A program made the position numbers and the translations under genes. 64,000 nucleotides of DNA, taken from a bacterium. GTDB taxonomy: Bacteria; Patescibacteriota; Patescibacteriia; UBA9934. Location of the stretch: the NCBI GenBank assembly GCA_027592325.1, contig JAQCKO010000005.1:202-64201 (forward strand). Direction: 5' to 3'. The notes under the pieces are model-generated. The model had not been told where the DNA came from, ran no database searches, and saw nothing but the letters and a program-made list of their open reading frames with translations. Below, piece by piece: positions 32,479 through 45,762 of this stretch (its first letter is position 1; each line of letters starts with the position of its first letter).

Positions 32479-32555
32479 AATCTCATGTTCTTCAAGGAGC
32501 GTCTAGGTTGCATCGCTTTGCTCGTTGAAGACGTTAACATCGTACGTTTCAAAAA

Positions 32556-32580
32556 AAAATCACCGAAGGTGAATAACTGG
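32556..32580 (-). terminator. Hairpin plus U9 about 100 nt upstream of the murA start (leader terminator or end of an sRNA)
   Basis: In minus sense ucaccuucggugauuuuuuuuu. Confidence 0.4.
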
Positions 32581-32799
32581 GCGCGGCGCGTAACGCGAAA
32601 TTTGGTTCATACCACATGTGGGCGTAGCGAGCAGCTTGCGATGGAAAGAGCCCTTGCCCCATCTATCGGTCGATTGCACACCATGAACCGCTGAATCCCC
32701 GAGTCTTTCGGTGTCTAGAAAGGGTCGAACAATGTGATCATCGTTTTTATTGGATTCTCAAAAAATGCTTAGCCAATTCGCGTGTACGCGCGGCGCATA
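32581..32799. mobile_element. MITE-like element with 19/20-bp terminal inverted repeats
   Basis: The left terminus is GCGCGGCGCGTAACGCGAA at 32581-32599. The right terminus TTCGCGTGTACGCGCGGCGC at 32777-32796 is its reverse complement with 1 mismatch and 1 indel. The interior is about 177 nt. Confidence 0.5.
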
Positions 32800-32815
32800 G
32801 TAAGCGTACCATACT

Positions 32816-32856
32816 CAAAAAGAAAACGCCCACGAAGGGCGGCTTCTTTTTTTTCG
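32816..32856 (-). terminator. Intrinsic terminator after ndk (also reads as plus-strand)
   Basis: The hairpin cgccc-acgaa-gggcg has T-runs on both sides. Confidence 0.6.
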
Positions 32857-32865
32857 CTCAACAGA

Positions 32866-36819: not shown

Positions 36820-37578
36820 CTAGCTTAGCAAACTGCGGTGATCTGTCGACCCCTCATAGCGAAGCACATAGCGCGAGGAAAAACGAGGGCTGCACGCGGT
36901 ACATGAACGCTGATCATAGAAGCGTCGACCAGTTGTAACCATATGTCCATTTGGACAACGATAGCGATGCTGTTTGGGCAGAACACGATGCGCGCGCGTT
37001 GATCGATGGATGATATCGTCCTCAGAAAATGTAGATCGCCAATGCGCGCCTTCTATCGCGCGGGACACATTCACTCCTTTTCGCACACGCAGCACACCCG
37101 GATTCACGCCCTGTTTTAAATAACGCAATTGCAGCATTTCTTCTTTTGAACACGCTTTTGGTTCAAAGCCATTTTGAGATCGGTATTCCTGAACACAATC
37201 CGCAACATTTGTGTTGAATACACGCCCATGTGGCATGCGGCGCGCTTTTCCATCGAAAGCAGGAGCCATATGCCAAAGTTCGTGCATGAGCGTTTCAAGC
37301 AGTTCACCGCGAAGGCCATGGTTCTCAACAAGAAGTCCGGCGTTCAATTGCAATAAATAAATGATATCTCGATGTTGATAATGAAAGGTCGGGAACATGG
37401 GGCGGAATGTTGTGCCGTCATAGGCATGCCGAAGCGGAGTGAGCTTGCCATGGGTTCTAACGCCGCCTTTTTTGATGAAAACGAGCACTTGATCAGGTCG
37501 AATATGCGAAAGCCGCGGCACAACTTGTACCGCGTCTTTGATCATGCGTTCGATTGTCGCCGGGGCGTCGAAAGACAT
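36820..37578 (-). CDS. SprT-like zinc metalloprotease domain protein
   Basis: The HELWH (HExxH) motif is followed by a Cys-rich zinc-ribbon tail (YRCPNGH...CTACS). The gene lies in a GC-rich block. Confidence 0.4.
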   Translation of the reverse strand: MSFDAPATIERMIKDAVQVVPRLSHIRPDQVLVFIKKGGVRTHGKLTPLRHAYDGTTFRPMFPTFHYQHRDIIYLLQLNAGLLVENHGLRGELLETLMHELWHMAPAFDGKARRMPHGRVFNTNVADCVQEYRSQNGFEPKACSKEEMLQLRYLKQGVNPGVLRVRKGVNVSRAIEGAHWRSTFSEDDIIHRSTRAHRVLPKQHRYRCPNGHMVTTGRRFYDQRSCTACSPRFSSRYVLRYEGSTDHRSLLS

Positions 37579-37671
37579 AATTTGAGCGTAGCATGGATTG
37601 ACATCCAGATCGATTCATGTTAGAAAGAATGGTCCTTTCAAATCTCGTTCAACCCCTCACCTGAGGCCCAA

Positions 37672-38121
37672 ATGACTACCAACCATGAAGCCATCGATGA
37701 TCTGGTCGAGCTCTTCCGGCAAGCCTTCGATGCATCTAGGATGTGGCGTAAGGCCAACAGTATACTGTATCGGCTTGCCGACGGCTGCGGATCTGCACGA
37801 ATCACTCCCCGGAGTGAAGAAGAGGGCGCGCAACCACCAAGCGTAGTAATCGATATGCCTTGGAATCGTCAGCCCGGCACAACCGTTGTCGGCGTCTGCC
37901 TTGTCTTCCTGAATCACTACCCCTCGCGCATCGTCCTGCACAATGATGTTGCGCTGCACGAGGGTAAACCGTATGAAACCGATCTCACTGGTCAGACGCC
38001 CGAGGCGATCGTCGCGCGCGTAATGCAGCTCATCGAGCAGTGGTCTCGTGAGGGCAGGTTCAAGCGATGCGCGAGCCGCGAGCCATATCATCAACATTCT
38101 CTGGAAGATGATGGAAGGTGA
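37672..38121 (+). CDS. Hypothetical protein (frame ambiguous)
   Basis: This 149-aa ORF lies in a 58% GC block. An antisense ORF at 37657-38097 is of equal length. The plus-strand frame looks more protein-like. Confidence 0.25.
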   Translation: MTTNHEAIDDLVELFRQAFDASRMWRKANSILYRLADGCGSARITPRSEEEGAQPPSVVIDMPWNRQPGTTVVGVCLVFLNHYPSRIVLHNDVALHEGKPYETDLTGQTPEAIVARVMQLIEQWSREGRFKRCASREPYHQHSLEDDGR

Positions 38122-38443
38122 ACGTGGCGGCGCTGTGCGTATCTATGTCCAGCAACCGCACGTTGGAGGCCCGGGCCGTGATGAGGTGGATCCAATCGTA
38201 GCGCAAATAGCGGTCTACCTACGCCCTCGAACACGCCATCCGGCGCCGGTTCGGGGGCGTGTTTCGTTTTGGTTATTTGTAGAATGGAAAAAGTAGACAG
38301 TAGAAAGTGATAAAAGCGCACCGTAGTACGCTTTTATCATCCTGATCGAGCCTTTGGAGAGCTGAAGGATCTATTCGAATCGAGAGATTGCCACGTCGTT
38401 CACTACGTTCACTCCTCACAATGACAATTTGATATGTCCGAAT

Positions 38444-38569
38444 CAAAGAACGCCTCAGATTGCTTTAGATGCAGGTGCGCCCGCGAGCACCGAAATGTGC
38501 CGTACTGAGCGTACGGTGAATAAGGCGCGGAGCTGCAAGCCTGCAGATGAAATAATCTGAGGCGTCCTA
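38444..38569 (-). repeat. Copy 3 of the intergenic repeat family (divergent), enclosed in a 13-bp inverted repeat
   Basis: The element starts at the leuS TAG stop. In minus sense it reads TAGGACGCCTCAGATT...CATCTGCAGGCTTGCAGCTCCGCG.... The outer inverted repeat is gacgcctcagatt / aatctgaggcgtc. Confidence 0.55.
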
Positions 38570-41557
38570 AACGACAAAGTTCACCAGCTTGTCTGGGACA
38601 AAAATAACCTTCTTCACCTCCCCTTCAAGATACTTCGCCACATGTTCTTCCGCGCGTGCGGCTGCTTCTACCTTCGCTTGATTTGACCCAGCATCCATTT
38701 CAAGTGTTGCGCGTAATTTTCCATTCACCTGCACAGCGATGGTTACTACATCGTCTTTTGTAAGCTCCTCGCTGAATTCCGGCCAGCTGAGCGATTCTAA
38801 AATCTCGTTTCCACCGGTTTTTTCATAGAGCTCATTCGCCACATGCGGCGCAAATGGAACAAGCGTGCGCAAGAACGTATGAAGTGAATCTTTCGAAACC
38901 GATTTTGCCTTATGAAGCTCATTCACATAACTCATCATGGCTGCAACGGCGGTATTGAATGACATTGATTCAATATCAGTGTTGACTTTTTTGAGCATTT
39001 TGTGAAGGGCCGAAGTCAGCTCTTTCGATGCATCATTCGCGATGAATTCCTCAAGGCGCATTACGCGGTCTAAAAATCGCTTTACTCCCATTACCCCATT
39101 TTCACTCCAAGGCGCCGGCTCGGAGAATGGCCCCAAGAAAAGCTCGTACATGCGAAGCGTATCAGCCCCAAAATTCGTGACGATGTCATCAGGATTCACC
39201 ACATTCCCCTTGCTCTTGCTCATTTTCGATCCATCCTCAGCAAGAATAAGCCCGTGACTTCGGCGCGAATGATACGGTTCAGAAACCGGCACATGCCCGC
39301 GATCATGCAGGAATTTATTCCAGAAGCGTGAGTACAAAAGGTGAAGCGTTGTATGCTCCATTCCGCCATTATAAAGATTCACCGGCATCCAGTACTTGAG
39401 CGCCTCTTCACTCGCAAATGCCTCGCTATTGTGCGGATCGGTATAGCGAAGGAAATACCAGCTGGATCCTGCCCAGTTTGGCATGGTATCGGTTTCGCGC
39501 TTCGCTGGACCACCACAAGACGGACATTCGGTATTCACCCAGTCATTAATCGCTGCGAGCGGTGATTCTCCATCATCGGTTGGAAGATATGCATCAATTT
39601 CAGGAAGCACAACCGGTAGCTGGTCGTCAGGAATCGGCACCCAATCACACGCTTCACAGTGAACAAGAGGAATCGGCTCTCCCCAGTAGCGCTGGCGCGA
39701 GAATACCCAATCCCGAAGCTTATACGTCGTCGCCTTTTCTCCTTTGCCAAGCTCTTCGAGCTTGCTGGTAATCCCAGCAATACCTTCTGCGACCGTCATA
39801 CGATCGAATGCACCCGAGTTCACAAGTTTGCCGTCTTTTGCAATAAAGGCTTCATGATCAAGATTAGCCTCATCACCATCAACCACCTGCTTCACCGGCA
39901 AATCATATTTCTTCGCAAAGGCAAAGTCGCGCTCATCATGCGCAGGAACGGCCATCACCGCGCCAGTTCCATAATTCATGAGCACATAATCGGCAACCCA
40001 AATTGGCACATATTCCCCAGTAAGAGGATGCTTGGCATAGGCCCCAGTGAATACGCCGGTTTTTTCTTTCGCGGCATCGCCACGCTCGATATCGGTTTTC
40101 TTTGCCGATGCTTCAATATACGTCTCAACATCCGCGCTCTGCTCATCCGTCGCAAGCTGAAGCGCAAGCGGATGTTCTGGTGCGAGGACCATATAGGTGA
40201 CACCGTAAAGCGTATCAGGACGCGTGGTGAAGACTTCGATTGTCGGCTGAAGGGCATCAAGAAGCGCCACACGATAATCCTCAAGCTCGACGCGGGTTTC
40301 TTCCTCCGTCTGCTCCTTGGGGTACTTTCCAGTTTTTCTATTGATATACAACGAACGAATAGGGAAAAATTCATCCACTGGTTCATGCACCTTGGTCGAC
40401 AGCTGAATGGGTCGCTTACATTCTGTCACCTTTTCTGTTCCATCAGGAAAAATACAAACAAAGACATCATGCCAATGTCCCTCAATAACACCGCCACGCG
40501 CTTCGGCAAGCCCTTTGTAATGCGCGAGCATACGATCGGCAATTTCTCGCTGCGAAAGCGCTGCCTCCTCTTCCTCGGTGACAACGCTCCTTCGCACTTC
40601 AGCCGGGTCCATATCAACCCCTTCGAGTACAAAGGCGGAGTCCATCCCGAGCACCGGAACATCTACATTTCCAGCGTACACCTGTGCCTTCATGCGTGCA
40701 TTTTCAACTAAATCACTTCCCTCATTCACCTCATGCGAATGCATCCCATAATCAACTGCCTCGCGAAGCGCAATATTGCTCCCCTCGCAAACAAAACGAT
40801 TCCGCTCGAGCTTTGCCTCATTTCCCGTCGCCACGAGAACTTCCCGTACCTCACCAAGATCAAATCGAATTTTTGCTCCTTCACTACGCCCAATCCAGTC
40901 TACCTGCTGCTTGGCAATTTTCGGAAGAAAATCGACGGTTTCAAGATCATCAATAAGCCGATCGGCAAATTTAGTAATCGCAATCATCCACTGTTCTTTT
41001 TCGCGCATTTCAACCTCTCCCCCGCAACGTTCGCACGCAGCATTCACCACCTCTTCATTTGCAAGCCCAATTTTGCATGACGTACACCAATTAATCGCTA
41101 TCGTATCTTTATACGCGAGCCCAGCTTTGAAGAACTCTAAAAATTGCCACTGCGTCCATTTGTAATACGCGGGGTCGGTGGTATTCACTTCGCGCGACCA
41201 ATCGAACGAAAGTCCGAGACTTTTGAGCTGACGCCGGAAATTATCGATATTCTCCTTAGTCACGTCTTGCGGCTTCCGGCCCGTTTTGATGGCATAATTC
41301 TCGGTTGGAAGACCAAAGGCATCCCATCCGATTGGATAGAGCACATTATATCCCTCCATGCGGCGCTTACGCGCGATCACGTCAAGCGCGGTATAGCTGC
41401 GCGGATGCCCAACGTGAAGACCTGCTCCAGATGGGAATGGAAATTCAACCAGCAAATAATACGGGTCTTTTTTCGAATCGTTCTTAGCTTCGAAGATTTT
41501 TGCCTCTTCCCAAGTTTTTTGCCATTTTTTATCAATATCGCTGTGATTGTAGCTCAT
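38567..41557 (-). CDS. leuS: Leucyl-tRNA synthetase
   Basis: The HMGH-like motif (GLHVGHPRSY), KMSKS, and the editing and anticodon-binding domains are present. The start is taken at MSYNHSDIDKKWQKTW. The track ORF extends 45 codons further upstream. Confidence 0.9.
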   Translation of the reverse strand: MSYNHSDIDKKWQKTWEEAKIFEAKNDSKKDPYYLLVEFPFPSGAGLHVGHPRSYTALDVIARKRRMEGYNVLYPIGWDAFGLPTENYAIKTGRKPQDVTKENIDNFRRQLKSLGLSFDWSREVNTTDPAYYKWTQWQFLEFFKAGLAYKDTIAINWCTSCKIGLANEEVVNAACERCGGEVEMREKEQWMIAITKFADRLIDDLETVDFLPKIAKQQVDWIGRSEGAKIRFDLGEVREVLVATGNEAKLERNRFVCEGSNIALREAVDYGMHSHEVNEGSDLVENARMKAQVYAGNVDVPVLGMDSAFVLEGVDMDPAEVRRSVVTEEEEAALSQREIADRMLAHYKGLAEARGGVIEGHWHDVFVCIFPDGTEKVTECKRPIQLSTKVHEPVDEFFPIRSLYINRKTGKYPKEQTEEETRVELEDYRVALLDALQPTIEVFTTRPDTLYGVTYMVLAPEHPLALQLATDEQSADVETYIEASAKKTDIERGDAAKEKTGVFTGAYAKHPLTGEYVPIWVADYVLMNYGTGAVMAVPAHDERDFAFAKKYDLPVKQVVDGDEANLDHEAFIAKDGKLVNSGAFDRMTVAEGIAGITSKLEELGKGEKATTYKLRDWVFSRQRYWGEPIPLVHCEACDWVPIPDDQLPVVLPEIDAYLPTDDGESPLAAINDWVNTECPSCGGPAKRETDTMPNWAGSSWYFLRYTDPHNSEAFASEEALKYWMPVNLYNGGMEHTTLHLLYSRFWNKFLHDRGHVPVSEPYHSRRSHGLILAEDGSKMSKSKGNVVNPDDIVTNFGADTLRMYELFLGPFSEPAPWSENGVMGVKRFLDRVMRLEEFIANDASKELTSALHKMLKKVNTDIESMSFNTAVAAMMSYVNELHKAKSVSKDSLHTFLRTLVPFAPHVANELYEKTGGNEILESLSWPEFSEELTKDDVVTIAVQVNGKLRATLEMDAGSNQAKVEAAARAEEHVAKYLEGEVKKVIFVPDKLVNFVV

Positions 41558-41574
41558 ACTTCTGCTCAAATAAG

Positions 41575-41592
41575 ATAGCGCTACTGTAGCGC
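41575..41592. promoter_or_regulatory. Perfect 7-1-7 palindrome GCGCTAC-T-GTAGCGC about 20 nt upstream of the leuS start
   Basis: The operator-like dyad lies between candidate -35 and -10 elements. Confidence 0.35.
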
Positions 41593-41911
41593 GCTCATTG
41601 ACGTTCTGTAAAGGATTTCGCACCCTTTCTTTCGCAAAGGAGGTGCCCATGCGGTACTTGAACCCAAGGAATGTCCTTGAGGACTTTCCCATATGGCTGA
41701 TCGATGAATGGGGGATTGCTCATCATTGTTATCGCAATTGCCCTCATCGCATATAATTTCGCGATGCTGAAGTATTCAAAGATTGAACGCAGGTTCAACC
41801 TTCAGGCGCACCGGTGCTTTCGTACTGGTGTCGTCACGCTCCCGTTCACGGTAGACATGTTCATGCTCGCCTTGTGGAGCATCGCGCGCCGTATGGTGAC
41901 GCGCATCTTGC

Positions 41912-41945
41912 CGCCTAGCAGTAGCTGGGCGGCTTTTCTTTTGTG
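41912..41945 (+). terminator. Intrinsic terminator (plus) inside track ORF 41704-42090
   Basis: The hairpin gccgcc-tagcagtagctg-ggcggc is followed by TTTTCTTTT. Confidence 0.55.
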
Positions 41946-42340
41946 GCGTGAGCAGCGAATCCATATTGGATCGGGGCCTTCCAGGTTCCGCAATAAGCTT
42001 CATCTAGCGCTACACTTGCATTCCATGCAAGGACGCGTCCAAGACGTATCGATTACTCTACGGAGTACTCAGTGTTCATATATGACTTGACGTGTTTTTC
42101 TCTGGCGTATAGGCTTCTTGCAGATATGTACGCATTTGTATATACAAACTGGTTTTTCCACCGTGCTCGATTTTATCGAGCAACTTGAGGTTATCCGCGC
42201 ACATATCTTTAAAAGACCAATTGATATTTGCCCGGATAGGGCATTTTTTCATTCTATGAGACAGCAATCACCACAATATTGGCATGGCTTTCGACGTTCT
42301 TTTAGGCGCCGGTAGCTTAGTTTTTGAGATGAATGTCGAA

Positions 42341-42375
42341 AAACGAGCTGCTAAGGCTCGTTTTTCTTCGGTCAT
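42341..42375 (+). terminator. Strong intrinsic terminator (plus) upstream of the real start of the 42425 gene
   Basis: The hairpin aaaaacgagc-tgctaag-gctcgttttt has an 11-bp stem and is followed by CTTC. Confidence 0.6.
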
Positions 42376-42424
42376 GGTCCATGGGAATTCTCCGATGGAC
42401 CAACTCGCAGACAAGGGAGCAATC

Positions 42425-43561
42425 ATGCCATTTTGTGTGACGCATAGGCCAGATCTTTCCATCGATGATCTGCTGCAGCTTATGAGGTCTGGAAAGCCCG
42501 TCTACAAGACGCCACATGCAGGAAATTTCTACCCGAATAACCTTGCACTTGCTGCGCTTGGCATTCCTATGAAGCTGGTTGACCACAATCGTGGAGAAAA
42601 GGATAAAAACTTTCATCCGCATGTGGTGGTCATGAATGGTGCGCAGTATGAAGTGGCTAACCCAACCTTACTTTCCGCAGGAGCAGCCCTTCTAACGGTA
42701 CCGGAATCATTGCGCGGGTACGCGCTTCCTGGCGATACGGCAGCCGAATTCCACTACCGAACGTTACGCGCAGCGATTCCAACCATGGACGGAGAACTGT
42801 GGTCACGTTCCGTCGGTAGGCGTGGTGGACCGATGTACGAACTCTGCGCCATTGTCGCAGAAATCGCGCCACAGCTCTTCACGCGCTACATGCATGAAGA
42901 TGGATCTACACGCCTCGTCACAGCGCGTGAGGCGAGGCTGCTGATCGCGAACGAGCATATTCAAGGGCTGCGTGGGAACCGAGAAGGTGTCGTCATCCCG
43001 AATGTCGTCTGTATTCTCGCGGACGGACTCGTAGATACCTACCTGTACCGCACCGAGGAAGTCTACAGCCTTTCGGGACCCGACATGTTCAGATACATCA
43101 AGCACATGCAAGATCAGCTTGATATGCTATTCGCAGCAGCTCAGGATAGGGTCAGCTGGAATGTACCTGAAACGATCACCATGAATATGGTGAATGTGAG
43201 CCCAATGAGGTTCACTGTACCAAGGCGTAGACAAGCAGCCCTCGATGCCGTCATGAACGCCTACCTTTCTGTCATCGCCGCTGACAGTCAGTGGAATCAG
43301 ATCATGCGGGAGGCAAATCCAGCGTCACGGCGAGCGCTCGCCGCTAGCCGAAAGGCAGAACGCGCCGTGCTCATTGTGGCACTGAGGGAAGCGCTTCAAG
43401 GCTGCTCCGAAATCCTCTACCGCATTGAGGATGGTGTATTCACGAGCCAATACGATCTTCTGAGGACGGGTGACGAAATGTACATCCATCCCTGGGCGAT
43501 GACGGCTTCCATGCGAGATATTGAAAAAGCATCGACTTTCATGATGAAGTTGATGCATTAA
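42425..43561 (+). CDS. Hypothetical protein of 378 aa with no recognisable domain
   Basis: AGGGAG lies 5 nt upstream of the ATG (MPFCVTHRPDLSIDDLLQLMRSGKPVYKTPHAGNFYPNN...). The region is about 56% GC. The track ORF extends upstream across the terminator, so the internal start is preferred. Confidence 0.5.
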   Translation: MPFCVTHRPDLSIDDLLQLMRSGKPVYKTPHAGNFYPNNLALAALGIPMKLVDHNRGEKDKNFHPHVVVMNGAQYEVANPTLLSAGAALLTVPESLRGYALPGDTAAEFHYRTLRAAIPTMDGELWSRSVGRRGGPMYELCAIVAEIAPQLFTRYMHEDGSTRLVTAREARLLIANEHIQGLRGNREGVVIPNVVCILADGLVDTYLYRTEEVYSLSGPDMFRYIKHMQDQLDMLFAAAQDRVSWNVPETITMNMVNVSPMRFTVPRRRQAALDAVMNAYLSVIAADSQWNQIMREANPASRRALAASRKAERAVLIVALREALQGCSEILYRIEDGVFTSQYDLLRTGDEMYIHPWAMTASMRDIEKASTFMMKLMH

Positions 43562-43594
43562 CCTCCGGCGCCAAACGGGCGCCGGCCCCCTTCT

Positions 43595-44536
43595 ATGCTT
43601 CCGATTATCGATTTACACCAAGACCTTCTCTCACATCTCAAATACAGAGCAAAGCTCGGTCAACATGATCAGTCGAGTTTTGAAATGGCTGCAGAAGCAA
43701 ATATTCGCTGTCTTATTGCAACCGCCTTTCCTCTTCCACCAAGGAATAATTTCTATGATCCAATAACAAATCAACAAATTGAAGAAGAGCTCGCGGAATA
43801 TCAACACTATTGCAAAAAATCAGAGGTATGGAATCTTATTCGCAACAAGAGCGATTTCGAGCAGGCGCTTCAAGGACCAAAACGCGGGATTATTTCGCAT
43901 ATCGAAGGGATTCATGTGCTAACTCGTCCTATCGATGAATTGCTTTCCGACTGGTATGCGCTAGGACTCCGTTCACTTGGACCAGTTTGGAATTTGGAAA
44001 CACCGCTTGGCGGAGGAACACATGCGGATGGAATTGGACTTACAGAAGATGGAGAAAAAGCGATTCGATTTGCTGAAACAAACGGGATGATTCTTGACTT
44101 CGCTCATATGAATCAAGAAACATTTTTTGATACTGTCGCTATTTGGAGCGGCCCCATCTATATCAGTCATGGAAATTGTTCCGCGATTTGTATGAATAAG
44201 CGAAATTACTCTGATGCACAATTGCAAATCATCAAAGAACGTGATGGGGTCATAGGGCTCTTTCTTGCCGCAAAATATGTCGATGCTTCTGGCAAAGCTG
44301 AAATTTATGATGTAATTCGTCATGCAAAACACATGAAACAAATGATTGGTGCAGAGCATATCGCTATTGGCAGTGACTTTGGCGGCATCTTGAGTGGATG
44401 TGTCAATGGACTTCGATCTGTTCTCGATCTGCCATTTTTGCTTGAACAATTCAAGCTTCATGGATTCACTGAGGAAGAGGTTGAAGGCATTGCCTATAAA
44501 AATGCTGCTCGTGTTATACGAAAAATGCTCAAATAA
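43595..44536 (+). CDS. Membrane dipeptidase (peptidase M19 family)
   Basis: The N-terminus is DLHQD. The GSDFGG motif and the His/Asp metal ligands of the renal-dipeptidase family are present. Confidence 0.7.
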   Translation: MLPIIDLHQDLLSHLKYRAKLGQHDQSSFEMAAEANIRCLIATAFPLPPRNNFYDPITNQQIEEELAEYQHYCKKSEVWNLIRNKSDFEQALQGPKRGIISHIEGIHVLTRPIDELLSDWYALGLRSLGPVWNLETPLGGGTHADGIGLTEDGEKAIRFAETNGMILDFAHMNQETFFDTVAIWSGPIYISHGNCSAICMNKRNYSDAQLQIIKERDGVIGLFLAAKYVDASGKAEIYDVIRHAKHMKQMIGAEHIAIGSDFGGILSGCVNGLRSVLDLPFLLEQFKLHGFTEEEVEGIAYKNAARVIRKMLK

Positions 44537-44565
44537 AAATGAGCCTCAGCCGAGGCTCATTTTTA
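44536..44565. terminator. Bidirectional intrinsic terminator between the dipeptidase gene and gdhA
   Basis: aaaaatgagcctc-agcc-gaggctcattttt. Both stop codons overlap its flanks. Confidence 0.75.
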
Positions 44566-45762
44566 TTTCTTCGCTTCGTGTAGCCGCTCGAGAGCAAGAA
44601 CAAATGCCGCTTTTCTAAGATCCACGCCATACTTCTCACTACGTTCATACACCGCGTCTGCCGCTTTTTGCATCAGATCCTGAAGCTTTTCATCAACATC
44701 TTTCGCACTCCATCGCTCTTCTTTCATATTCTGATCCCATTCAAAATAACTCACGGTGACACCGCCCGAATTCGCAAGCACATCTGGCACCACATGTATC
44801 CCCCGATCAAAAAATATGTCATCTGCCTCTGGTGTTGTTGGCCCATTTGCCAGTTCGAGGATCATTTTTGCCTTCACGTCCCTCGCATTTTCCACCGTGA
44901 GGACATTTTCTAGCGCTGCCGGCACAAGAAGATCACATTCGAGCGCGAGGAGCTGCTGATTTGAGATATTCTCTGCACATTCAAAATCTTGTACCAAGCC
45001 TGTTGCATCTTTGTGTATCCCAACCGCAGCAATATCGAGTCCATCTGCCTGCATAATCGCTCCGCGTGAGTCAGAAACGGCAAGGACTTTGAGGCCATTC
45101 TTCGCACAAATCTCGGCAAACATACGCCCAGCATTTCCAAAGCCTTGAATCACCACCGTCTTGATTGGGGCGTCGAGGAGCGTTTCGGTAAGCGCGTTCA
45201 ACACATAATATCCCCCCATTGCTGTTGCCGTGCTGCGTCCTTCACTCCCGCCCGCCTCAATGGGCTTCCCTGTCACGACGGCTGGATGCCCAAATTCATC
45301 GGCAATCCAGGCCATTTCACGTGGTGAAGTATTCACATCAGGAGCAGGAACATCAATTTCTGGCCCGATCACGCCGCGCATCGCCTTGGTCCAGCTGCGC
45401 GTAAGACGCTCGATCTCCGCCTCGGAAAGCTCTTTTGGATTCACCGTCACGCCCCCTTTTCCGCCGCCCATAGGAATCCCGGCAACAGCCGTTTTAACAC
45501 TCATCCACGTCGCAAGCGCACGCACCTCGTCAAGATCAACTGCCTGGTGATAGCGAATGCCGCCTTTAAATGGACCGCGCCAGTCATTATGCTGAACACG
45601 ATACCCTTCGATCATGAGTAAGGATTCATCATCACGAATAAGCGGTAAATTCACCTTCACCTCACGCATTGGATGACGAAGGAGTTCAACCGTTTCTTCT
45701 TGAATGCCAGCGATTTCTGCTGCGCGGGAAATTTGTTTGAGAGCGTTATTGAAGGCGGACAT
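44563..45762 (-). CDS. gdhA: NADP-specific glutamate dehydrogenase
   Basis: The GGGKGG motif and the catalytic Lys region are present. The start is taken at MSAFNNALKQ. The upstream track extension translates a C/A-rich leader. Confidence 0.9.
   Translation of the reverse strand: MSAFNNALKQISRAAEIAGIQEETVELLRHPMREVKVNLPLIRDDESLLMIEGYRVQHNDWRGPFKGGIRYHQAVDLDEVRALATWMSVKTAVAGIPMGGGKGGVTVNPKELSEAEIERLTRSWTKAMRGVIGPEIDVPAPDVNTSPREMAWIADEFGHPAVVTGKPIEAGGSEGRSTATAMGGYYVLNALTETLLDAPIKTVVIQGFGNAGRMFAEICAKNGLKVLAVSDSRGAIMQADGLDIAAVGIHKDATGLVQDFECAENISNQQLLALECDLLVPAALENVLTVENARDVKAKMILELANGPTTPEADDIFFDRGIHVVPDVLANSGGVTVSYFEWDQNMKEERWSAKDVDEKLQDLMQKAADAVYERSEKYGVDLRKAAFVLALERLHEAKK

Follow-up and report, generated by a model that had tools for sequence, protein, structure and literature searches.

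The 64,000-nucleotide (nt) stretch of DNA analysed here in full (the window; contig JAQCKO010000005.1 of a member of the Patescibacteriota) harbours the gene of an uncharacterised protein of 378 amino acids (aa), hereafter UNK, between the divergently oriented leucyl-tRNA synthetase gene leuS and a gene of the peptidase M19 (membrane dipeptidase) family. The 867 nt between leuS and the UNK start codon at 42425 represent the longest non-coding stretch of the surrounding 21 kb, and the part next to UNK carries what we read as a leader-peptide transcription attenuator: with a probability of about 0.6, positions 42087-44536 form one transcription unit in which this element controls UNK, with the M19 gene following. 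Along the forward strand, the features on which this reading is built are:

41557, minus strand: start of leuS (N-terminus MSYNHSDIDKKWQ...)
41558..42086, no strand: spacer from the leuS start to the leader promoter, without conserved open reading frame (ORF) or RNA family
41910..41942, plus strand: terminator 1 (stem 41910-41933; 10 bp, 8 of them G-C; ΔG -20.3 kcal/mol; tail TTTTCTTTT)
42087..42115, plus strand: predicted sigma-70-type promoter (-35 TTGACG at 42087-42092, N17, -10 TAGGCT at 42110-42115)
42126..42188, plus strand: upstream ORF 1 (uORF1), MYAFVYTNWFFHRARFYRAT, 20 codons and a stop, in the same register as the leader peptides of relatives
42150-42152, plus strand: Trp codon of uORF1, an in-frame TGG at codon 9
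42164..42170, plus strand: segment 2, UGCUCGA, complementary to ACGAGCU in the 5' arm of terminator 2
42229..42249, plus strand: third, weaker terminator-like hairpin (TGCCC-GGATA-GGGCA at 42229-42243, 5 bp, then T6)
42256..42315, plus strand: uORF2, MRQQSPQYWHGFRRSFRRR, with Trp at codon 9 and its stop 25 nt before terminator 2
42339..42368, plus strand: terminator 2, the putative attenuator terminator (core stem 42344-42360, A/U extension to 42339-42365, then UUUUUCUU)
42376..42401, plus strand: stable hairpin, GGTCCATG...CGATGGACC, between terminator 2 and the ribosome-binding site
42414..42419, plus strand: Shine-Dalgarno site AGGGAG, 5 nt before the ATG
42425..43561, plus strand: UNK coding sequence, 378 aa, placed by homologues and start alignment
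43565..43585, plus strand: G+C-rich hairpin between UNK and the M19 gene; a hairpin is found there in every locus, mostly with a T-rich tail
43595..44536, plus strand: peptidase M19 gene (PF01244, synteny)
44531..44568, no strand: bidirectional terminator between the M19 gene and a convergent glutamate dehydrogenase gene, which marks the end of the UNK-M19 unit

An earlier note on this DNA, made from the letters alone, saw no convincing coding sequence upstream of 42425, and our analysis agrees. All ORFs of at least 20 aa on both strands of 41558-42424 were scored by codon log-odds against 22 reference genes, and every one of them scored under all 22. For the 128-aa ORF at 41704-42090, a search of 5.8 billion proteins yielded no relative at E≤10, and its only Pfam match is a sub-threshold one on a membrane-helix stretch. 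Comparison of the gap with all related loci and with the rest of the window (tblastx, blastn) revealed no gene remnants, including those of the genes that flank UNK in relatives, and three Rfam runs, one of them narrow and permissive, gave hits at chance level, with no family below E = 0.4 in 41540-42440.

The start of UNK at 42425 behind the AGGGAG site, as proposed in the same note, is borne out by 26 homologues (345-406 aa), which align from the same MP(F/I) N-terminus and carry GGAGG-type sites at the corresponding place. The public annotation begins at 42284, i.e. 47 codons too early; since the resulting 425-aa frame runs through terminator 2, we consider this call too long. Similar N-terminal extensions are present in three homologues (P0011, P0018 and P0023) and probably also reach into their leaders.

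Two plus-strand intrinsic terminators had likewise been noticed, and both are real, lying far above the expectation from dinucleotide shuffles. Hairpins as strong as terminator 1, with a stem of at least 9, at least seven G-C pairs and a T-tail, occur three times in the window, compared with 0.07 in the shuffles; with at least four G-C pairs the counts are 11 versus 0.87, and one further set of criteria gave 33 terminator-like hairpins versus 7.3 ± 2.8. The genome clearly uses such signals. Terminator 1, with the stem arms GCCGCCTAGC/GCTGGGCGGC, lies inside the spurious 128-aa ORF and interrupts it, while terminator 2 ends some 60 nt before the UNK start codon.

The argument for attenuation comes mainly from relatives. 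Fifty-eight related loci were drawn from collections of genomes and metagenomes. For eight loci, the 250-370 nt in front of UNK were aligned, and a study of 37 non-redundant upstream regions followed. The eight aligned leaders have their architecture in common, not their sequence, and the order and spacing of promoter, ATG, short frame, Trp codon, complementary segment, terminator, hairpin and Shine-Dalgarno site are conserved. Of the 37 non-redundant loci, 26 have a strong intrinsic terminator whose end lies 46-125 nt upstream of the UNK start codon, and no coding signal runs through the terminator in these upstream regions. In the closely related loci L025 and L026 the distance from terminator to UNK is 205 nt; their leaders contain an extra insertion of about 135 nt past the terminator, which folds into a long hairpin (about -100 kcal/mol for 205 nt, z-score about -9). 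The suggestion that the two terminators of the window mark one or two small plus-strand RNAs or attenuators is thereby supported for terminator 2, as an attenuator. For terminator 1 and the surrounding 530 nt, no plus-strand promoter, conserved ORF, RNA family or relative was found, and this hairpin might be left over from a former genomic context, mark the end of a small transcript that escaped recognition, or act as an insulator. Its origin from the terminator of ndk, a neighbour of UNK in relatives, was also considered, as both have GCC-rich stems and a TTTTCTTTT tail, and was rejected because the likeness is too short to count.

Upstream of the leader terminator lies a TTGACA-N16-18-TAnnnT promoter motif, which is found in 25 of 27 leaders; the site in the window aligns with those of seven relatives. 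In the relatives, an ATG without a Shine-Dalgarno site before it lies 6-17 nt (mode 9-10) past the end of the -10 box. Because this ATG is so near the -10 box, the 5' untranslated region would comprise a few nucleotides at most. The frame opened by the ATG spans 15-45 codons, with 14-34 nt (mode 25) between its stop and the terminator stem. A blind test started from the first ATG found no more than 25 nt from the -10 box and asked whether its frame ended 10-35 nt before the terminator stem, which was true in 19 of 26 loci compared with 5 and 9 for the other two frames. Of the seven failures, five concern ATGs only 0-2 nt past the -10 box, i.e. too close to be in the transcript.

The best complement of the 5' arm of the terminator sits in the last third of the short frame and ends 10-28 nt before the end of that frame. 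This complementarity has a mean z-score of -1.78 relative to dinucleotide shuffles, with 14 of 27 leaders at p≤0.05, and the complement changes along with the terminator sequence between lineages, i.e. the two covary. For the window and for L008b, L013, L019, L021, L028 and L047, the own pairing is better than those with any of 9-21 unrelated loci. When the nascent RNA is folded as far as the terminator loop, most loci show the 5' arm paired with the short-frame segment.

An in-frame TGG codon occurs in 17 of 21 lineage representatives, compared with 48 % for the off-frames (p 0.002), and in 12 of the 21 lineages the complementary segment follows it at a distance of 12-22 nt (mode 15). Two or three residues ahead of this Trp there is often a Tyr or His, and the residues 2-4 positions before it are loosely conserved. 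Substitutions in the short frame are distributed over codon positions 1, 2 and 3 as 286/394/389, without a third-position excess; in view of this lack of protein-type purifying selection, the leader peptide is probably no functional protein, which fits a regulatory peptide. What is kept in the short frame is probably limited to its boundaries, a few codons and the RNA pairings. All 27 leaders also have a very stable hairpin between the terminator and the Shine-Dalgarno site (z-scores -1.7 to -9), and the U-tail of the terminator often pairs with an A-rich stretch at that site. A strict scan of all loci for the whole module, on both strands, returned 44 modules, 40 of which are directly upstream of UNK.

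Taken against the usual description of an attenuator, the 5' leader contains a short ORF with a usable start, as judged by the position of the ATG and the frame-specific stop; an intrinsic terminator separates this ORF from the structural gene, both in the window and in the 26 loci mentioned above; and antiterminator pairing is predicted at the level of the family.

In the window, the promoter is the only plus-strand promoter-like site in 41450-42450, and no such site is present between terminator 2 and the UNK start codon. The ATG of uORF1 lies 10 nt past the -10 box, making this a near-leaderless frame. Counted from the first base of the Trp codon, segment 2 begins 15 nt downstream, and another 19 nt separate its end from that of uORF1; L001, L003, L024 and L032 have the same register. 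The pairing of segment 2 with the terminator of the window is matched by none of 18 other loci. The leader as a whole folds at -100.7 kcal/mol (z-score -4.97). This copy is nevertheless atypical, since 152 nt separate the uORF1 stop from terminator 2 compared with about 25 nt in relatives: the extra sequence of about 150 nt holds the weak terminator-like hairpin, 40 nt past the uORF1 stop, and uORF2, for which neither a promoter nor a Shine-Dalgarno site of its own was found. From its content, it possibly represents a partly duplicated attenuator module. The sequence UGGCAUG in uORF2 is complementary to CAUGCCA at the UNK start codon (42424-42430).

From the arrangement of these features we infer where transcription starts, that uORF1 is translated, that ribosomes pause at Trp, the direction of the regulation and the signal sensed. 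Transcription would start at about 42122 from the TTGACG-N17-TAGGCT promoter, and a ribosome would translate the 20-codon uORF1 from the ATG at 42126, located at the 5' end or a few bases from it. On reaching the stop codon, this ribosome would cover segment 2, the terminator at 42339-42368 would form, and a short leader RNA would be released, i.e. a small plus-strand RNA of about 245 nt. A ribosome pausing with the Trp codon (42150-42152) in its A site, however, would cover some 12-13 nt downstream and leave segment 2 just exposed. Free segment 2 could then pair with the 5' arm of the terminator as an antiterminator, allowing the polymerase to continue into UNK and the M19 gene. The cause of the pause might be a shortage of charged tRNA-Trp or an arrest brought about by the nascent peptide itself; both options are retained because there is a single Trp codon with semi-conserved residues before it.

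Several points speak against this scheme. Equilibrium folds form the terminator with or without a modelled ribosome, and the terminator is always the more stable structure; therefore, the switch would have to be kinetic. Accordingly, equilibrium folding with modelled ribosomes was discarded as a demonstration of the switch, as none of these folds reproduced it and only the nascent-RNA folds show the antiterminator. In the window, segment 2 prefers a local hairpin with 42176-42182 and lies 170 nt from the terminator, no modelled ribosome position removes terminator 2, and the promoter is weak (8 of 12 matches). As the local hairpin and the terminator persist in the models, we rate the mechanism higher for the family than for the copy in the window. 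Within the family, the largest subgroup has an invariant segment 2 and terminator arm, where the pairing is no better than in shuffles, and 4 of the 21 lineages lack an in-frame Trp codon. Mostly a single Trp codon is present, whereas classical attenuators mostly have runs of regulatory codons, and leaderless translation is assumed for Patescibacteria. Moreover, Trp has no recognised link to the known or guessed chemistry of the downstream genes, and the modelled UNK structure yields no significant match for its function (best fold hit E 0.05, TM 0.36).

A leader as highly structured as this one, in which terminator, hairpin and Shine-Dalgarno site resemble the expression platform of a riboswitch, might also be a riboswitch or a factor-dependent attenuator that responds to a small molecule, a tRNA or a protein, the short frame being incidental. 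The missing third-position excess in the substitutions of that frame and the frequency of TGG in the off-frames too would be in line with this. We nonetheless regard it as unlikely, given that Rfam produced no match, T-box and amino-acid riboswitches included (window at E≤10; nine related loci at the gathering score, rRNA and tRNA excepted), that the putative aptamer region is almost without conserved sequence between lineages, and that the conserved features are those needed by a translated frame, i.e. the position of the ATG relative to the -10 box, the placement of the stop codon in the blind test and the distance from Trp to segment 2. Promoter, short ORF and terminator would also make up a complete unit, so the short frame and its terminator could instead be an independent small gene, for a micro-protein (perhaps the precursor of a modified peptide) or a small RNA, with UNK expressed from its own promoter or by constitutive read-through. 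Such a bracketing of each gene would agree with the hairpin or terminator that follows UNK in every locus, and attenuator-derived RNAs are able to act in trans, as is the case for rnTrpL (PMC6614838). This explanation appears very unlikely: the 60-100 nt between terminator and UNK contain no promoter-like site and are occupied by the stable hairpin, the peptide is poorly conserved except for Trp and shows no pattern of purifying selection, the 3' part of the frame covaries with the terminator arm, for which an independent gene has no need, and the module occurs nearly only before UNK (40 of 44).

A different kind of explanation, i.e. that 41700-43561 is a recently acquired foreign segment and terminator 1 a relic of the donor context, starts from base composition. 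The earlier note had described a block of about 56 % GC next to an M19 gene of normal GC and took this as a hint of horizontal acquisition. A single uniform G+C-rich block is the wrong description: the UNK coding sequence has 53.1 % GC and reaches 56 % only in some 400-nt windows, the gap has 43-52 %, and its A+T-rich part is formed by the leader. Nor is the composition of the M19 gene normal, its GC content at third codon positions (GC3) of 0.33 being the lowest of the window genes. UNK does have the highest GC and GC3 in the window (GC3 0.57 versus 0.33-0.49 in the other genes) and the lowest native-codon score (0.075). Furthermore, the unit has been rearranged. While more than ten Uhrbacteria loci carry it between ndk and murA, in the window these two genes are adjacent (387-nt spacer, 32479-32865), and the UNK unit is found at a different genomic position, divergent next to leuS, without the racemase gene of the relatives and with an orphan terminator upstream that belongs to no promoter or gene. 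However, all of the 33 loci compared have a higher GC3 in UNK than in the M19 gene next to it (mean difference 0.14), UNK also lies above the mean of the neighbouring long ORFs in 23 of 27 non-redundant loci from genomes of 33 % to 68 % GC, and UNK GC tracks that of the host locus from 0.35 to 0.72. Since the same offset recurs in all 33 loci, the raised GC3 is a property of the gene family and no evidence of recent transfer. The region 41400-44700 contains no direct repeats, and there is no tRNA gene nearby and no mobility gene, the neighbours being leuS, M19 and gdh; the block thus has neither the family-independent atypical composition nor the flanking repeats, tRNA or mobility genes of a genomic island. 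The gap moreover holds no remnant of the genes that adjoin UNK in relatives, and the orphan terminator is only slightly like that of ndk. A foreign segment is therefore quite unlikely, and the inference of horizontal acquisition from GC content is not supported. The difference between UNK and M19 can be large, e.g. GC3 of 0.77 versus 0.40 in L043 and 0.88 versus 0.53 in L049, and Saccharibacteria-type loci without the attenuator show no UNK GC3 excess. The spacer between ndk and murA in the window holds two minus-strand terminator-like hairpins.

Turning to the genes under the putative control of the leader, the deposited protein identical to UNK is named 'MAG: hypothetical protein O3B64_01860 [bacterium]', and its relatives come from Candidatus Uhrbacteria and allied groups. 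The statement that UNK has no recognisable motif or family was confirmed by searches of Pfam, PHROGs, NCBIfam, PADLOC and PDB sequences with the single sequence or with profiles of 27 and 64 sequences, none of which gave a match. Orthologues are plentiful, none of them with a known function, and the 64-sequence profile, run against 5.8 billion proteins, retrieved nothing past 'hypothetical protein'. The family comprises at least 453 clusters (50 % identity) at E≤0.001 and 227 at E≤1e-30 in a profile search of 1.84 billion cluster representatives, and all 150 members among the matches listed are single-domain proteins of about 215-435 aa. Across 64 diverse members, H31, D60, G218, Y224 and D344 are invariant and G33, N34, D53, P65, H110, S217, M221 and Q342 nearly so, with the motifs PHVGN, DKNFHPH, LSGPDM and SQYD; this pattern of conservation looks enzyme-like. 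Several genomes contain tandem or nearby paralogues of UNK (L005 4604-7131, L008 5001-7392 and L024), and the second copy in L008 has a leader of its own with a short frame (MTIVMMNYWKHN...) and a terminator.

The AlphaFold2 model of UNK is confident (predicted local distance difference test, pLDDT, 95; predicted template modelling score, pTM, 0.91) and combines an alpha/beta region with a long helical hairpin (residues 267-325) and further helices in the C-terminal part. Searching the full-length model with Foldseek gave no significant neighbour in the PDB, the best being PanC and ArgRS (E 0.04-0.3, TM about 0.2), and in BFVD ArgRS and a cytidylyltransferase came out on top, below significance. 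With residues 1-266 alone (pLDDT 93), the best PDB hit was BshC (4wbd; E 0.052, probability 0.44, TM 0.36), followed by ArgRS and PanC. The HUP-class enzymes BshC, PanC and ArgRS (4wbd, 3ivc, 5b63), which are amino-acid ligases of Rossmann-like fold that depend on ATP, head three independent searches, and UNK resembles them in carrying P-H-x-G-N, with the invariant H31-x-G33-N34, between strand 26-28 and helix 37-44, where those enzymes have their HIGH-type motif, and in the long helical hairpin that follows the alpha/beta part. The differences are that all matches are insignificant (E 0.04-0.3, TM 0.18-0.36), that there is no sequence similarity and that no KMSKS-like motif is recognised, LSGPDM (216-221) being the sole candidate for a second motif. 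Neither fold nor sequence similarity therefore places UNK among the HUP-class amino-acid ligases. For BshC, which has a coiled-coil domain, the assignment as a cysteine ligase is itself putative, its reaction not having been reconstituted (PMC5790435). Two further candidates were dropped: a divergent tryptophanyl-tRNA synthetase, suggested by the HVGN motif and the Trp in the leader, as no TrpRS or TyrRS is among the top structures and Pfam tRNA-synt_1b gave no match, and a PP-loop ATPase, suggested by the resemblance of LSGPDM to SGGxDS, as nothing supports it.

The neighbours of UNK give a further hint of its role. The M19 protein matches PF01244 over profile positions 6-318 of 319 (E 5.2e-67, 226.7 bits, cut-off 26) and is a member of this family. 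UNK nearly always has an M19 gene behind it, directly so in about 25 non-redundant loci, in 17 of which an Asp/Glu racemase family gene comes third, its best NCBIfam match being glutamate racemase (131 bits, just under the cut-off). In the window, this racemase gene is absent after M19, and the convergent glutamate dehydrogenase gene is found instead. In the Saccharibacteria-type context, UNK directly follows prolyl-tRNA synthetase, near an alanine racemase, a Mur ligase and a RimK-like ATP-grasp gene. The recurring theme of these neighbours is amino acids, D-amino acids and cell-wall peptides. Based on the conserved neighbours and the weak fold signal, UNK is probably an enzyme of amino-acid, dipeptide or cell-wall-peptide metabolism and possibly a Rossmann-like amino-acid ligase. 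Because a strong hairpin separates UNK from M19 in every locus, the two genes may belong to different expression classes; the M19 ATG lies about 10-25 nt past this hairpin, without an obvious Shine-Dalgarno site.

Some observations concern the other side of the spacer. On the minus strand, a promoter-like site is overlapped by a hairpin (GCGCTACAGTAGCGC then TATCTTATTT, 41569-41592) situated 20 nt ahead of the leuS start codon, and the 200-nt minus-strand region upstream of leuS folds with a z-score of -2.6. A T-box at this place, which a GUACCGC string and the hairpin 20 nt before the ATG had brought to mind, is unsupported by Rfam. LeuS itself (38567-41557, 996 aa) seems to have a long acidic insertion at about residues 290-480 of the ORF listing; an insertion of this kind is not known to be typical of bacterial LeuS. 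Beyond leuS follows a second G+C-rich island at 36820-38566 (GC 0.54-0.58 at 37600-38400) with unannotated overlapping ORFs on the plus (37672-38121) and minus (37657-38097) strands, and with a 252-aa ORF on the minus strand (36820-37578) that has no precomputed Pfam hit or NCBIfam match and occupies the position of a NUDIX gene in relatives.

It is tempting to speculate further that the leader peptide (...[H/Y]-x-[Y/H]-x-W...) is a sensory peptide peculiar to Patescibacteria, in which a pause on tRNA-Trp charging or on a metabolite sensed in the ribosomal tunnel would switch on UNK as a structurally novel, so far unrecognised amino-acid ligase-like enzyme, distantly akin to BshC or class I synthetases and acting with the dipeptidase and glutamate racemase in the salvage or remodelling of cell-wall peptides. 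We hold this to be improbable as a whole. If it applied, UNK would have an L-Xaa-D-Xaa-type dipeptidase as partner in organisms unable to make their own amino acids, and its GC3 excess would reflect selection on transcription or translation of the message under starvation.

The regulation of Patescibacteria (Candidate Phyla Radiation) is almost unexplored, as these bacteria are mostly uncultured and have few recognisable regulators. If the attenuator reading is right, a conserved leader that can be defined by sequence would provide a concrete cis-regulatory device for this phylum. The leader also marks out an abundant, unannotated protein family with a confident model and no close solved relative, whose link to M19 dipeptidases and racemases makes it a target in the search for a missing amino-acid or cell-wall-peptide step in reduced genomes. 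Calls of horizontal transfer based on GC content would be misled by this family.

Compared with known systems, the UNK leader is closest in layout to the trpL-type attenuators of Escherichia coli (PMC4007540, PMC1183508), with which it shares a short leader frame containing Trp, a terminator before the first structural gene, and a 3' segment of the frame that is able to pair with the 5' arm of the terminator and would be free at a Trp pause and covered at the stop. It differs in that the start codon lies 6-17 nt from the -10 box without a Shine-Dalgarno site, in that usually one Trp codon follows a loosely conserved His or Tyr, in that the genes controlled are not Trp-biosynthetic, and in the extra constant hairpin between terminator and Shine-Dalgarno site; the copy in the window has, in addition, its 150-nt insertion with a second module, and the UNK leader is known here from sequence alone.

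Leaderless leader peptides have been described elsewhere. In Deinococcus deserti, 14 of them are predicted upstream of genes for aminoacyl-tRNA synthetases and for amino-acid biosynthesis (PMC4007540), and in mycobacteria, leaderless short ORFs that respond to cysteine act on a downstream ribosome-binding site (bioRxiv 10.1101/834739). As would be the case for UNK, a 5'-terminal AUG opens a sensory ORF in which ribosome pausing governs the downstream genes. These bacteria belong to other phyla than Patescibacteria, the mycobacterial ORFs unmask a ribosome-binding site whereas the UNK leader would use a terminator, and the regulatory residues of both match the controlled pathway, whereas the Trp of the UNK leader has no known link to its operon.

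In TnaC, a conserved Trp of the nascent chain is needed to sense free tryptophan. Like TnaC, the UNK leader peptide is short and has one conserved Trp, with loose conservation of the residues 2-4 positions ahead of it. In contrast, TnaC acts through Rho-dependent termination and stalls at the stop codon, while the UNK leader would combine an intrinsic terminator with an RNA antiterminator, and its arrest is putative. No report that connects leader-peptide attenuation with Patescibacteria turned up in the literature library searched. By its sequence features, the UNK leader appears to be a new member of a familiar class of regulatory devices, of which there are hardly any descriptions from this phylum.

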